64,000 bases of DNA from an uncultured Candidatus Actinomarina sp. (GCA_902510995.1 CABXDL010000003.1:22-64021); one strand, 5' to 3'; shown: positions 21,233 through 31,024, numbered from the stretch's first letter. The notes: generated from the sequence alone by a model not told the origin. Translations and numbers: made by a program.

Positions 21233-21573
21233 TGGTGGAGGTGCGGGGAGTCGAACCCCGGTCCTTTTAAGCTATCAAACAGCTTCTCCGAGTGCATCTG
21301 GTGTAATACTATTGAGAAAGTCACCAGAACCTATTCCTCAATAGTTTCTACCTTAAAGCTTAAAAGTTAGTCGGTAGCCTAACTTCGCATCCCACATTTC
21401 AACGCCGATACTACCCGAGGTGGGAACCCCGATAGTCGACGAGCCGCAATTAAGCGGCTATAGCCAATTTAGGTTTGGCAGTTATATTTTTTTTCCTACG
21501 TTTTTTACGAGGCCCTAGGTCCCTCGACTCGCTACTGAGAGACTCACTTCAAAGTCGAAGCCAGTTCACCCCC
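21233..21573 (-). ncRNA. ssrA: tmRNA (SsrA), 341 nt, CCA encoded
   Basis: The 5' end is GGGGGUGAACUGGCUUCGAC and the 3' end is GGACCGGGGUUCGACUCCCCGCACCUCCACCA (tRNA-Ala-like acceptor/T arm). An internal tag ORF follows an A-rich stretch, as in E. coli ssrA. GC content is markedly higher than the surroundings. Confidence 0.93.
21450..21479 (-). other. tmRNA tag-peptide reading frame: GCC AAA CCU AAA UUG GCU AUA GCC GCU UAA = AKPKLAIAA*
   Basis: The resume codon was placed by analogy with E. coli (A-rich tract, then GCN). The tag ends in the hydrophobic AIAA, like the canonical ALAA. The exact resume codon is not verified. Confidence 0.6.
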
Positions 21574-21625: not shown

Positions 21626-22273
21626 ATGAAAACAAATGAAAATACTTTCAATCTAAACAGTATTCTTGAGGTTATTTTGGATTCTACAGATAATGATGGA
21701 TTAATATTTATACCTAAAAATAGCGAAATTCATGTAATTATTGAAAATTACTTTGGAAAAATTGTAATAAGTGAAATAAAAATAATAAATATTGAAGATC
21801 AGCTCTCACTATCTAAAGATATGTTGGAAAGCTCATTGCCATTGCTTGATTTAAAACATCTAGATAGATATTTATTTAAGCAATTAAGCGACAGAGCTAG
21901 TTTTAATTATTCACCCTATAATTACTTTCCAAATTACGATTTCTCAGTATTTGAAAAAGGAAGAAGGCCTAATGAGATTGATTGGGCAATGTTTGCAATG
22001 TTATATATTTTTGCGTGTAATGTACTTCCAGAATCAATTAAAGTTGGGCTATCTCTAGCAAAAGAATTAAGGGTTTCTGAAGAAAACTTAAAAAAGTTTA
22101 TCAAAAAAATTCCTGAAAATATATTTAGAAAAACTGGTCATTTAGAAAGCAGAGGTGGAAACTTAACTTTTGATGCTGAAGAACTAATAAAAAATAATTT
22201 AAATGAAGAAGACAAAATAGATTTTGATGAAAATCCTTATTTAAAATTTCACTCTGGCTCTGATTTAGCTTGA
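21626..22273 (+). CDS. Hypothetical protein (possible C-terminal helix-turn-helix-like segment)
   Basis: 215 aa with no family recognised. The segment GLSLAKELRVSEENLKKFIKK is HTH-like. Its 3' end overlaps the convergent PPOX gene by 25 nt. Confidence 0.55.
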   Translation: MKTNENTFNLNSILEVILDSTDNDGLIFIPKNSEIHVIIENYFGKIVISEIKIINIEDQLSLSKDMLESSLPLLDLKHLDRYLFKQLSDRASFNYSPYNYFPNYDFSVFEKGRRPNEIDWAMFAMLYIFACNVLPESIKVGLSLAKELRVSEENLKKFIKKIPENIFRKTGHLESRGGNLTFDAEELIKNNLNEEDKIDFDENPYLKFHSGSDLA

Positions 22274-22719: not shown

Positions 22720-23292
22720 ATGGCTTTTATAAATATTTTTAACTTTGAAGAATCTTCCGGTCTTTTAAAAAAAGAATATGAAAAAGGAATGAGAAGAGCT
22801 GGGAGAATTTGGAAAATACTTAGTATCCAATCTCAAACTCCTGAAATACTTCAAGATTCAATGAGACTTTATGGTTCAACGATGTATGGAAAATCAAAAT
22901 TAACTAGGTTTGATAGAGAACTACTTGCTGTGGTTACTTCGATTTCAAATGAATGTGAATACTGAATACGAGCACATTTATACGATCTCCGGTCGGAGAC
23001 AGAAAACCAAGAACTTATAGATGAGGTTGCTAAAGATTGGAAAAGTAGTTCCTTATCTCCAAAACACATGGAGCTATGCAAATTTGCAGAAAAATTAACA
23101 ATCAAACCAGATAAAATAAATAAAAATGATATTGAATCACTTAAATCTTTTAAATTTAATGAAATAGAAATTTCAGAAATAGTCCAAGTTATATCTTATT
23201 TCAATTACATAAATAGAGTCGCCGATGGTTTAGGTTTAGAACCTGAAGATTTTATCGACAAATTAGGCTATAAAAAACATATTGATGAATAA
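22720..23292 (+). CDS. AhpD/carboxymuconolactone-decarboxylase-family 'peroxidase-related' protein with one in-frame TGA (22963..22965) at the second Cys of C-x-x-C-x-x-x-H: candidate selenoprotein, or else a pseudogene
   Basis: Track ORFs 22720..22965 and 23068..23292 share a frame, and the 102 nt between them carry no stop. The joined translation reads ...AVVTSISNECEY[TGA]IRAHLYDLRSE...ELCKFAEKLT...VQVISYFNYINRVADGLG, for 190 residues. Confidence 0.7.
22986..22999 (+). promoter_or_regulatory. GC-rich hairpin UCUCC-GGUC-GGAGA 21 nt downstream of the in-frame UGA (SECIS-like candidate)
   Basis: A 5-bp stem carries a tetraloop containing GU. It is built from the codons CTC CGG TCG GAG, which are rare in this AT-rich window. 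A possible outer helix pairs CAUUUAUA (22975..22982) with UAUAGAUG (23015..23022). Confidence 0.4.
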
Positions 23293-25876: not shown

Positions 25877-26128
25877 TTATTTTTGATAACTTTTTATTTT
25901 CTCTAATAGCTCTACATCAGTAGGCTCTACTAAATAGGTACCATCTTCAAATATAATTGTTGGTATCCTTGGTTTTCTATTTTGTAACTCACTAACCTTC
26001 TTATAAGCCTCTTTATCAAAATCAATATCAATCTCTTCATAAGAAATGTTCATTTTCTCTAATAATTTCTTAGATCTTACACAGTCTCCGCACCATGCAG
26101 TACTGTAAAACATGATATTATTCATCAA
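25877..26128 (-). CDS. Glutaredoxin-like protein (mycoredoxin-like, CGDC active site)
   Basis: 83 aa. FYSTAWCGDCVRSKKLL...IPTIIFEDGTYLVEP resembles actinobacterial mycoredoxin (WCGYC...VPTV.F.DG). Confidence 0.75.
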   Translation of the reverse strand: MMNNIMFYSTAWCGDCVRSKKLLEKMNISYEEIDIDFDKEAYKKVSELQNRKPRIPTIIFEDGTYLVEPTDVELLEKIKSYQK

Positions 26129-26161: not shown

Positions 26162-26473
26162 TTAGCTAATAGCTTGAATCTTTTCTTTTATAACTTCTTT
26201 TGGCTGAACCCCTACAAATCTTTCTTTAATTTCTCCATCTTTGAGAATTACTACAGTTGGAACACCCATTACTTGGTTAGCACCAGATATTTCTGGGAAC
26301 TGGTCTACATCTAATTTTACAAATTCTACATTTTCCATTTCATCCTGAAGTTCTTCAAGTATTGGACTTAATATTTTGCAAGGCCCACACCATGTAGCAT
26401 GAAAGTCTATAACGACAGTATTTGTAGAATCTTTAAGTTGTTCATATTCTTCTGCATTTATGTCTTTAACCAT
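26162..26473 (-). CDS. trxA: Thioredoxin
   Basis: 103 aa with the WCGPC active site and GVPTV. Confidence 0.93.
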   Translation of the reverse strand: MVKDINAEEYEQLKDSTNTVVIDFHATWCGPCKILSPILEELQDEMENVEFVKLDVDQFPEISGANQVMGVPTVVILKDGEIKERFVGVQPKEVIKEKIQAIS

Positions 26474-29249: not shown

Positions 29250-29927
29250 CTAAATATACCTACCTTCAGCTGCATCGCTCATAAGCTTTCCATCTTTAAG
29301 CTGCAAAACTCTCTTTTTTCTTCTATTAACAATAGATGAATCATGTGTAGCCATTATCACTGTTGTTCCTGCCCTATTAATTTTTTCAAGCAAAGTTGTA
29401 ATCTGAATACTCAAATCAGGATCTAAGTTTCCAGTCGGCTCATCACAAAGTAATAATAAGGGGTTACTTGCTAATGCTCTAGCTATGCTTACCCTTGTCT
29501 GTTCACCACCAGATAATTGATATGGGAATTTATAAACACTCTCATGAAGCTCAACAAGATCTATCAAAGTGCTTGTTTTTTGTTCTATTTCTTTAGAATC
29601 ATAACCAAGAATTTCCAATGCAAAACTTATATTTTCAAAAGTTGTCCTATCTTCTAATAATTGCGGTTCTTGTGTCACAATTCCAAGTTTTCTTCTTAAA
29701 ACTGGTATTTTCCATTTAGGTAAAGACGTTATATCCATATCAACAACTTCAATACTGCCCTTTGTTGCAAAATATTCTTTATATAACAACTTAAGAAAAG
29801 ATGATTTTCCACTTCCAGATGGGCCTATTAAGTATACGAATTCACCTTCCGAAATTGAAGTAGAAACATTTGATAACGCAACACTTCCTCCTTGGAAAAC
29901 CAATGAAACATTTTCTAATTTAATCAT
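29250..29927 (-). CDS. ftsE: Cell-division ABC transporter ATPase FtsE
   Basis: 225 aa. Walker A GPSGSGKSS, signature LSGGEQTRV and Walker B LLLCDEPTG are present. Confidence 0.92.
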   Translation of the reverse strand: MIKLENVSLVFQGGSVALSNVSTSISEGEFVYLIGPSGSGKSSFLKLLYKEYFATKGSIEVVDMDITSLPKWKIPVLRRKLGIVTQEPQLLEDRTTFENISFALEILGYDSKEIEQKTSTLIDLVELHESVYKFPYQLSGGEQTRVSIARALASNPLLLLCDEPTGNLDPDLSIQITTLLEKINRAGTTVIMATHDSSIVNRRKKRVLQLKDGKLMSDAAEGRYI

Positions 29928-31024
29928 TTAATCCCTGTCTTCGCCATTTTAGATACTCTTTTACAAAAATGAAAATATCTCCATCTAATACAGATTGGAT
30001 ATTACCTACTTCAATATTAGTTCTAGTATCTTTTACTTGTTGATATGGTTGCATAACATAGGAACGAATTTGCCTCCCCCAGCCAGCTTCTACCTGTTCT
30101 CCCCTAATTGCATCTAATTTTTTTAACTGTTTTTCTCTTTCTAGTAAAGCAATCTTTGACTTTAGTAAATCTAATGCTCTAATTTTATTTTGTAATTGAG
30201 ATCTTTCAGCTTGACAGGCAACAACTATTCCCGTTGGAAGGTGTGTTATTCTAACTGCAGAATCTGTTGTATTAACATGTTGCCCTCCAGCACCTGATGA
30301 TCTGTAAACATCAACTCTTATTTCATCATCTTTAATAACTGTTTCATCAGAGTCTTCAATCAAAGGAACCACATCTATTCCTGCAAAACTAGTATGTCTT
30401 CTTTTATTACTATCAAAAGGACTAATTCTAACTAGTCTATGAACTCCTCTTTCACTTTCTAGTATCCCGTAAGCACGATAGGATTTAACTCTTATTGAAA
30501 CTGATTTGATACCAGCTTCTTCACCACTAGAAATTTCTTCAATTTCATATTCCATTTTTTCACTATCTAAAAACCTTGTATACATTCGAAATAATATTTC
30601 CGCCCAATCATGAGCATCTACACCGCCAGCTCCTGCATTTATATTTAAAACAGCACTCAAGTCATCATACTCACCGTTAAATAAAGATTCCTCTTCTAAA
30701 ACTTCGAGCTTTTCTTCATAATCTTTTATCTGAGTTTTTACTTGCTCTAATTCAGAAACTTCATCTTTGCTTAATTCAATTAGTTCATATAAATCATTTA
30801 ATTCATTCTCAAGATTATTTAATAAAGTTATGATTTTTTCTATTGAGGAGGCTTCTTTAGTAATAGTTTTTGCATCATTATTATTAGACCAAAAATCTTT
30901 ATCAGAAATTAAAGAATTAAGTTCATCTAATTTTTTTATCTTAGAATCAAAGTCAAAGATACTCCTTAGCAGAAGCAAGCCTCTCAGCTAACCCTTCTAG
31001 TCGAGTTAATAATTCTTTATACAT
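29920..31024 (-). CDS. prfB: Peptide chain release factor 2, expressed via programmed +1 frameshift (frame 0: 31024..30956; frame +1: 30954..29920)
   Basis: ATG 31024 opens MYKELLTRLEGLAERLASAKEYL, which ends at CTT TGA C (TGA 30953..30955). The +1 frame continues DFDSKIKKLDEL... The SPF (RISPFDS) and GGQ (SGAGGQHVN) motifs are present. Confidence 0.92.
30952..30967 (-). promoter_or_regulatory. prfB +1 frameshift cassette: internal SD AAGGAG, TAT spacer, slippery CTT, UGA, C
   Basis: AAGGAG TAT CTT TGA C has the same spacing as the E. coli AGGGGG TAT CTT TGA C. Confidence 0.9.

Follow-up and report, generated by a model that had tools for sequence, protein, structure and literature searches.

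Does the frame at positions 22720..23292 of the window (the whole 64-kb stretch of DNA analysed here) encode a selenoprotein, or is it a gene that has only just acquired a nonsense mutation? The earlier note on this DNA had left the choice between a selenoprotein with a C-x-x-U motif and a young pseudogene. Our analysis leaves us confident that the locus holds an intact gene for a selenoprotein of Candidatus Actinomarina: a conserved TGA, a selected reading frame and a covarying hairpin support the selenocysteine (Sec) reading, and the pseudogene is refuted. Comparison with homologous loci shows UGA-82 to be, on sequence grounds, a recoded codon through which translation would continue.

The plus-strand frame holds 190 sense codons, and its translation is interrupted only at codon 82, by TGA at 22963..22965. 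The 108 codons that follow are open up to a TAA. Mechanical ORF listing divides the gene into two pieces, 22720..22965 and 23068..23292, and retranslation agrees with the initial reading that the two share a frame in which the TGA is the only interruption over 573 nt. At 32.2% GC, with a stop probability of 0.070 per codon, a 108-codon open frame has a chance probability of ~4e-4, and the other two frames of the gene region contain 9 and 16 stops, in line with the remark that so long a stop-free run would be unlikely in AT-rich DNA. Around the TGA the protein reads ...SISNECEY[TGA]IRAHLYDLRSE.... The features of the gene and of its surroundings are collected in Table 1.

Table 1. Features of the selenoprotein locus and of other genes discussed in the text (window coordinates).
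Feature	Position	Strand	Remarks
AhpD-like (TIGR01926) selenoprotein gene, complete (predicted)	22720..23292	+	190 codons including one Sec; TAA stop at 23290..23292
In-frame UGA, read as selenocysteine 82	22963..22965	+	TGA conserved; aligns with second Cys of CxxC in Cys forms and PDB homologues
Glu67 codon	22918..22920	+	Invariant column; 12 residues before first Cys; E-x11-CxxC-x3-H signature
Cys79 codon TGT, first residue of C-x-x-U, presumed resolving thiol	22954..22956	+	TGT/TGC in all orthologues
His86 codon	22975..22977	+	Invariant column; four residues past Sec
SECIS hairpin (predicted)	22983..23001	+	U20-A38, G21-C37, bulged A22, 5-bp core UCUCC/GGAGA (RNAalifold consensus)
5-bp core arms UCUCC / GGAGA	22986..22990 / 22995..22999	+	Part of the SECIS hairpin
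Apical tetraloop GGUC, presumed SelB contact (G/U)	22991..22994	+	Invariant in all Actinomarina sequences
One-piece tmRNA	21233..21573	-	Tag AKPKLAIAA; 1.1 kb upstream of selenoprotein gene
Conserved neighbour	21626..22273	+	No NCBIfam match
Conserved neighbour, 310 aa	23317..24249	+	No NCBIfam match; starts 25 nt past selenoprotein gene
Mycoredoxin-like / glutaredoxin-like protein (CGDC motif)	25877..26128	-	Beside thioredoxin
Thioredoxin (WCGPC)	26162..26473	-	TIGR01068, 107 bits
prfB	29920..30978	-	TIGR00020, 455 bits; AAGGAG-TAT-CTT-TGA-C site near 30958

What the frame encodes was assessed by scoring it against protein families with Cys substituted for the stop codon. The product matches the Pfam CMD family PF02627 (E 4.6e-12, 46 bits against a cutoff of 23), the AhpD core domain TIGR00778 (37 bits, cutoff 27.8) and, over residues 21-177 and profile positions 20-177 of 178, the 'peroxidase-related enzyme' family TIGR01926 (124.3 bits, cutoff 81.8). 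The assignment to the AhpD/CMD family made at first sight is thus upheld, PF02627 and TIGR01926 both scoring above their cutoffs. The protein is also like NF041238, 'alkylhydroperoxidase-related (seleno)protein' (CFYUT; Sargasso 'hypothetical protein 1'), in having an AhpD-related domain with CxxU, but it scores below the cutoff of that model (54 bits against 175) and matches only its C-terminal half; with 357 positions, the model is nearly twice as long as the 190 residues of the window protein.

In a sequence search of the PDB, the closest solved structures were single-domain AhpD-type proteins (6K40, E 2e-20; 3C1L, 2OYO, 2PFX and 2PRR), to which the window protein is homologous at E ~1e-20, and the fold is fixed by these matches. 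The UGA column is the second Cys of CxxC in the PDB alignments (NRCVYCAVSH against NECEYUIRAH). An alignment of distant homologues shows Glu67, Cys79, His86, Asp89, Arg91 and Glu93 as invariant columns, and E67, C79, U82 and H86 fit the AhpD-core signature E-x11-C-x-x-[C/U]-x3-H. The TGA had been placed on the second Cys of C-x-x-C-x-x-x-H, with a His four residues later; alignment and PDB homologues agree with this placement, and Cys-containing AhpD/CMD proteins have Cys in the UGA column. Six Cys-form proteins (P0045, P0047, P0049, P0050, P0052 and P0060) carry T-x-x-C at the redox motif.

We then asked how the TGA fares in relatives. The gene was found, together with its neighbourhood of tRNA-Gln, tmRNA and a PPOX-like gene, in 25 species-representative genomes that carry the label Candidatus Actinomarina or OCS155; the SAG AG-313-C18 matches best, at 99% identity. 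The proposal of a streamlined low-GC actinobacterium as host was correct. TGA stands at codon 82, with no second stop, in 31 of 31 loci (the 25 genomes and six metagenome contigs) and in all 10 further Actinomarina loci, giving 41 independent loci altogether from SAGs, MAGs and metagenome contigs; orthologues with the TGA extend down to 70% protein identity without a second stop or a frameshift. The codons that flank the TGA vary synonymously within Actinomarina (TGT/TGC, GAA/GAG, TAC/TAT), so that a single assembly error passed on by descent does not account for the TGA. Ahead of the TGA, pairwise pN/pS is 0.14; it is 0.28 over codons 83-116, the stretch left untranslated if UGA terminated and translation resumed at ATG 23068, and 0.30 further downstream. 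Sister genomes, to which the earlier note had looked for a decision, thus keep the TGA in all Actinomarina orthologues, with a downstream frame that is intact and under selection.

The same codon is found far beyond the genus. A profile-guided scan of the family, with one genome per species and the best 80 loci taken, gave TGA in 79 of the 80, the single exception (L064) having TGC. These best 80 loci come from at least 10 phyla, among them Acidimicrobiia, Acidobacteriota, Chloroflexota, Gemmatimonadota, Latescibacterota, Planctomycetota, Marinimicrobia, Calditrichota and others, and range in GC content from 31% to 75%. The first Cys (the Cys79 column) is Cys in 77 of the 79 Sec-form loci.

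A recent nonsense pseudogene, an otherwise dead gene, or a sequencing or assembly error that conceals a TGT or TGC is scarcely conceivable, even if the single in-frame stop resembles a fresh nonsense mutation and annotation pipelines divide the gene, given the TGA in 41 of 41 Actinomarina loci with neither a second stop nor a frameshift, the downstream pN/pS of 0.28-0.30 and the TGA in 79 of the 80 best distant homologue loci. We also consider it extremely unlikely that the locus is a split gene, in which an 81-residue N-terminal peptide would associate non-covalently with a separate 74-residue protein started at ATG 23068. Conservation in frame (pN/pS 0.28) extends over the 34 codons from the UGA to ATG-116, which hold the invariant His86, Asp89, Arg91 and Glu93, and Met116 itself is unconserved, orthologues showing I, T, K or Q in its place; these observations outweigh the listing of both pieces as ORFs with ATG starts and the many C-terminal fragments stored as 'proteins' (P0065, P0068 and P0069). 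Loss of the second redox residue and of the His would, moreover, abolish the AhpD active site. The conserved TGA, the selected downstream frame and the variable Met116 therefore rule out a pseudogene of recent origin, an assembly error and a gene in two pieces.

UGA nevertheless keeps its ordinary meaning elsewhere, as the earlier note had argued from the CTT-TGA-C site of prfB. Of the window's 48 long ORFs, 10 end in TGA, and prfB carries its frameshift site; taken together, these exclude a global reassignment of UGA. The programmed +1 frameshift site of prfB also indicates that RF2 autoregulation has been retained in a streamlined genome.

What would then mark this particular UGA for recoding? 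The hairpin UCUCC-GGUC-GGAGA, with GU in its loop, had been described at 22986..22999, and both its position and its letters proved right. With the lower pairs it reads UG(A)UCUCC-GGUC-GGAGACA; counted from the U of the UGA, the stem occupies +20..+38, its loop lies at +28..+31 and the GU of the loop at +29/+30. Codons 90-94 (Leu-Arg-Ser-Glu-Thr), which form it, are fixed in 26 of 26 Actinomarina genomes as CTC (20 genomes) or CTT (6), CGG, TCG, GAG and ACA; conserved Leu, Arg and Ser positions elsewhere in the gene use 3-6 codons each. The host uses CTC for 4.2% of Leu, CGG for 0.7% of Arg, TCG for 3.4% of Ser and GAG for 22% of Glu, and the joint probability of the hairpin codons under this usage is 2e-6. 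Synonymous divergence drops accordingly at the site, with a pS of 0.10 in codons 89-95 vs 0.64-0.70 in the rest of the gene, and the sole stem variant within Actinomarina is a C-G to U.G change (RNAalifold consensus). The suggestion that the scarce codons CTC, CGG, TCG and GAG reflect selection on RNA structure is well supported by this joint probability, by the fixation in all 26 genomes and by the low pS.

Other phyla have a hairpin of different sequence, GACCUC-CGKKNN-GAGGUC, at the corresponding offset, and the loop starts with CGG or CGU in nearly all family members. Family-wide, 84% of cells are paired in register vs 30-48% when the register is slid. Two stem positions covary: at 24:37 we count C:G in 56 sequences, U:A in 15 and U:G in 3, and at 25:36 C:G in 69, U:A in 2 and U:G in 1. 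The compensatory changes that a functional hairpin had been expected to show are therefore present, as C:G to U:A replacements at two stem positions in separate lineages. At the site of the SECIS stem, Cys forms have D-[YF]-R where Sec forms have D-L-R, and the stem is broken in the Cys forms because the stem-forming Leu codon is replaced by one for Tyr or Phe.

As a single structure, the window hairpin has a folding energy of -6.4 kcal/mol, no better than chance (z -0.59; 54 of 200 shuffles at least as stable), so its significance comes only from the comparative data. The hairpins of high-GC relatives reach -13 to -20 kcal/mol. No Rfam model matches the hairpin, a permissive threshold giving only a chance match to PYLIS_4 (E 4.9). 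By comparative criteria, the predicted hairpin is a bacterial SECIS. Two Sec forms from Acidobacteriota (L076 and L107) lack the family hairpin at +20..+39 and have a different one nearer the UGA, AUGGAGA-GGA-UCUCCAU at +13..+31 after the TGA; the SECIS may thus have been replaced within the family.

A small apical loop with a conserved G (G/U) is a criterion for bacterial SECIS elements (PMC1088965, PMC8659212), and in E. coli the apical-loop G23/U24 and a 5' bulge are the determinants recognised by SelB (PMC8659212). Like the E. coli fdhF element, the Actinomarina hairpin lies inside the coding region past the UGA and has a G/U apical loop and a 5' bulge a few pairs below it. It differs in that 17-20 nt, as opposed to 11, separate the UGA triplet from the start of the stem-loop, in that the bulged base is A and not U (the bulge being absent from the versions of other phyla), and in size, with 7 bp in total and no extended lower stem against ~40 nt in E. 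coli.

Decoding UGA as Sec requires tRNA-Sec, SelA, SelB and SelD. None of the corresponding genes was found in the 64-kb window or within 10 kb on either side of the gene in the 25 Actinomarina genomes. In the window and flanks, ARAGORN and Rfam returned only tRNA-Gln and tmRNA, and motif screens for SelA, SelB and SelD were negative. Scanning the genome collection with the SelD N-terminal pattern M-R-L-T-x6-G-[U/C]-G-C-K gave marine Acidimicrobiales (43% GC) and Paracoccus, and no Actinomarina; protein searches seeded with the matched SelDs led to high-GC or unassignable lineages, and a SelD scan of metagenomes to contigs of 28-29% GC with no link to the Actinomarina sequences. The related-locus search with the low-GC SelD was dominated by the generic motif DVYAMGGK. 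A scan of the window for other selenoprotein genes, as TGA-joined ORFs, gave antisense and adjacent-gene noise only.

These searches brought up several selenophosphate synthetases that are of interest in themselves. Marine Acidimicrobiales and relatives of 42-44% GC (L112, L113, L118-L121 and L125-L127) have an N-terminal in-frame TGA in this gene (MRLTQFSHGAGUGCKL) and hence a Sec-type SelD, and the database proteins of this type start past the TGA, at 286-324 aa instead of 344. Low-GC marine Sec-type SelDs, with G-U-A-G-K and not G-U-G-C-K, occur in two more lineages, one of 33% GC (L219-L225) and one of 28-30% GC (L223 and L226-L234). In the 33%-GC lineage, SelD adjoins a UPF0182 gene and a full arginine-biosynthesis cluster. 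We considered this lineage as a candidate for Actinomarina and did not count it, because the full arg operon conflicts with the reported arginine auxotrophy of Actinomarina.

A preprint of 2026, 'Actinomarina, resolved', reports that each of the 84 complete genomes has tRNA-Sec(UCA), selA and selD, along with a selB that is present but 'divergent, below threshold' of its profile (10.64898/2026.04.03.716425). It predicts about five selenoproteins per genome, most of them uncharacterised, and names no AhpD, CMD or peroxidase family (10.64898/2026.04.03.716425). We infer the Sec machinery of Actinomarina from this one unreviewed preprint and, indirectly, from the constraint on the SECIS.

UGA-82 might instead be read through without Sec, by a near-cognate Trp or Cys tRNA or a suppressor tRNA, with the hairpin slowing the ribosome or blocking RF2. 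The knowledge of the machinery from a preprint in which SelB scores below threshold (10.64898/2026.04.03.716425) and the weakness of the hairpin lend this some appeal, but we judge it very unlikely. The UGA occupies a catalytic Cys position at which only Cys or Sec would be functional and Trp would kill the redox motif; the G/U of the GGUC loop fits the SelB determinants of the E. coli SECIS; and the identical arrangement of TGA and hairpin recurs in phyla with well-known Sec systems. An RF2 with a UGA-sensing frameshift is present as well, and the same preprint has tRNA-Sec(UCA), selA and selD in all genomes.

Under the selenoprotein reading, the hairpin that starts 20 nt downstream of the UGA (7 bp, GGUC loop) would act as the SECIS. 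On the model of the canonical pathway and of the gene content given in the preprint, SelD and SelA would make the Sec-tRNA, and SelB-GTP-Sec-tRNA(Sec) would bind the GGUC loop and deliver Sec. Homology predicts a product of ~21 kDa, an all-helical thiol/selenol oxidoreductase of the AhpD type. The window protein shares the core E-x11-C-x-x-C-x3-H with Mycobacterium tuberculosis AhpD (Cys130-x-x-Cys133, His137, Glu118) and differs from it in having Sec as the second Cys, in belonging to the TIGR01926 'peroxidase-related' subgroup and in having no adjacent ahpC. In M. tuberculosis AhpD, Cys133, the second Cys, acts as the nucleophile, with Cys130 as the resolving residue. By analogy, the attack of Sec82 on a peroxide or oxidised partner would lead to a selenenyl-sulfide bond with Cys79, and a reductant of the thioredoxin or mycoredoxin type would then re-reduce it. 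Glu67 and His86 would serve as a proton relay, a role for Glu67 that we take to be the same as in M. tuberculosis AhpD. We know of no TIGR01926 member with a defined substrate. Genes for a thioredoxin and a mycoredoxin-like protein form a neighbouring pair 2.6 kb past the selenoprotein gene, and one may speculate that this pair provides its reductants.

Family, motif and mechanism are textbook matter for marine selenoproteomes, and the window gene is an ordinary case of a marine selenoprotein family that has long been known. The Sargasso Sea study described AhpD-like selenoproteins (COG2128, CxxU) among its new families, predicted a bacterial SECIS for them and counted 27 sequences (Zhang, Fomenko and Gladyshev, 2005; PMC1088965); in GOS in 2008, 'AhpD-like 1' ranked fourth in abundance among the selenoprotein families, with 299 sequences in 37 samples (PMC2398784), and the AhpD-like selenoprotein is also listed in a 2026 review (PMC13188914). 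The mention in the earlier note of such proteins from marine surveys was correct (PMC1088965, PMC2398784). Like the AhpD-like family (TIGR01926, CxxU), the window gene scores above the HMM cutoff, has one Sec in CxxU with a SECIS directly downstream, and is of marine surface-water origin. It agrees with the family in every trait that can be read from sequence; we see no structural difference, and the Actinomarina SECIS is new in being unusually short and A/U-flanked. Short NCBI contigs with the Actinomarina gene were considered as part of the original Sargasso dataset and turned out to be Tara assemblies.

New are the assignment to Actinomarina, the universality among the genomes of the genus that were examined, the very compact SECIS in an AT-rich genome, and the mistranslation or splitting of the gene in the records. 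Protein clusters with thousands of members (P0001-P0036) hold full-length proteins that store Trp (W) at the Sec position. The codon was read directly in six contigs (L026-L031) and is TGA in 6 of 6; in three others (L235-L237), translation of the gene with the bacterial code does not give the stored protein. The W looks like a genetic-code-4 mis-call on short low-GC contigs. Elsewhere (P0065, P0068 and P0069) the gene is stored as C-terminal fragments of ~104 aa. The gene is thus split or mistranslated in essentially every public record examined, and the corrected model is a 190-residue selenoprotein.

The surroundings are conserved too. The tmRNA tag, AKPKLA[IVL]AA, has one variable position across Actinomarina genomes, with synteny kept. 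The 310-aa neighbour has an N-terminal hydrophobic segment and a zinc-protease-like motif, HEIGHMLGWGH; its place behind the AhpD-like gene is the same in other Actinomarina contigs, and the two may therefore be co-transcribed.

Finally, one may tentatively go further and see in this genus-universal AhpD-like selenoprotein, with thioredoxin and mycoredoxin genes close by, the peroxide-defence enzyme whose gain in catalysis justifies keeping the whole Sec pathway in a 1.1-Mb genome, decoded by a divergent SelB through a SECIS that, with a stem of 5-7 bp and a GGUC loop, would be among the smallest natural ones in bacteria. We regard this wider proposal as rather doubtful; if it were true, the RNA element, and not protein function alone, would account in part for the conserved D-L-R-x-E peptide of the family. 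Actinomarina are among the most abundant photoheterotrophs of the surface ocean. Our findings provide independent comparative support for active UGA-Sec decoding in these bacteria, and they allow one of the about five 'mostly uncharacterised' selenoproteins recently claimed for them to be named and given a plausible role as an antioxidant.
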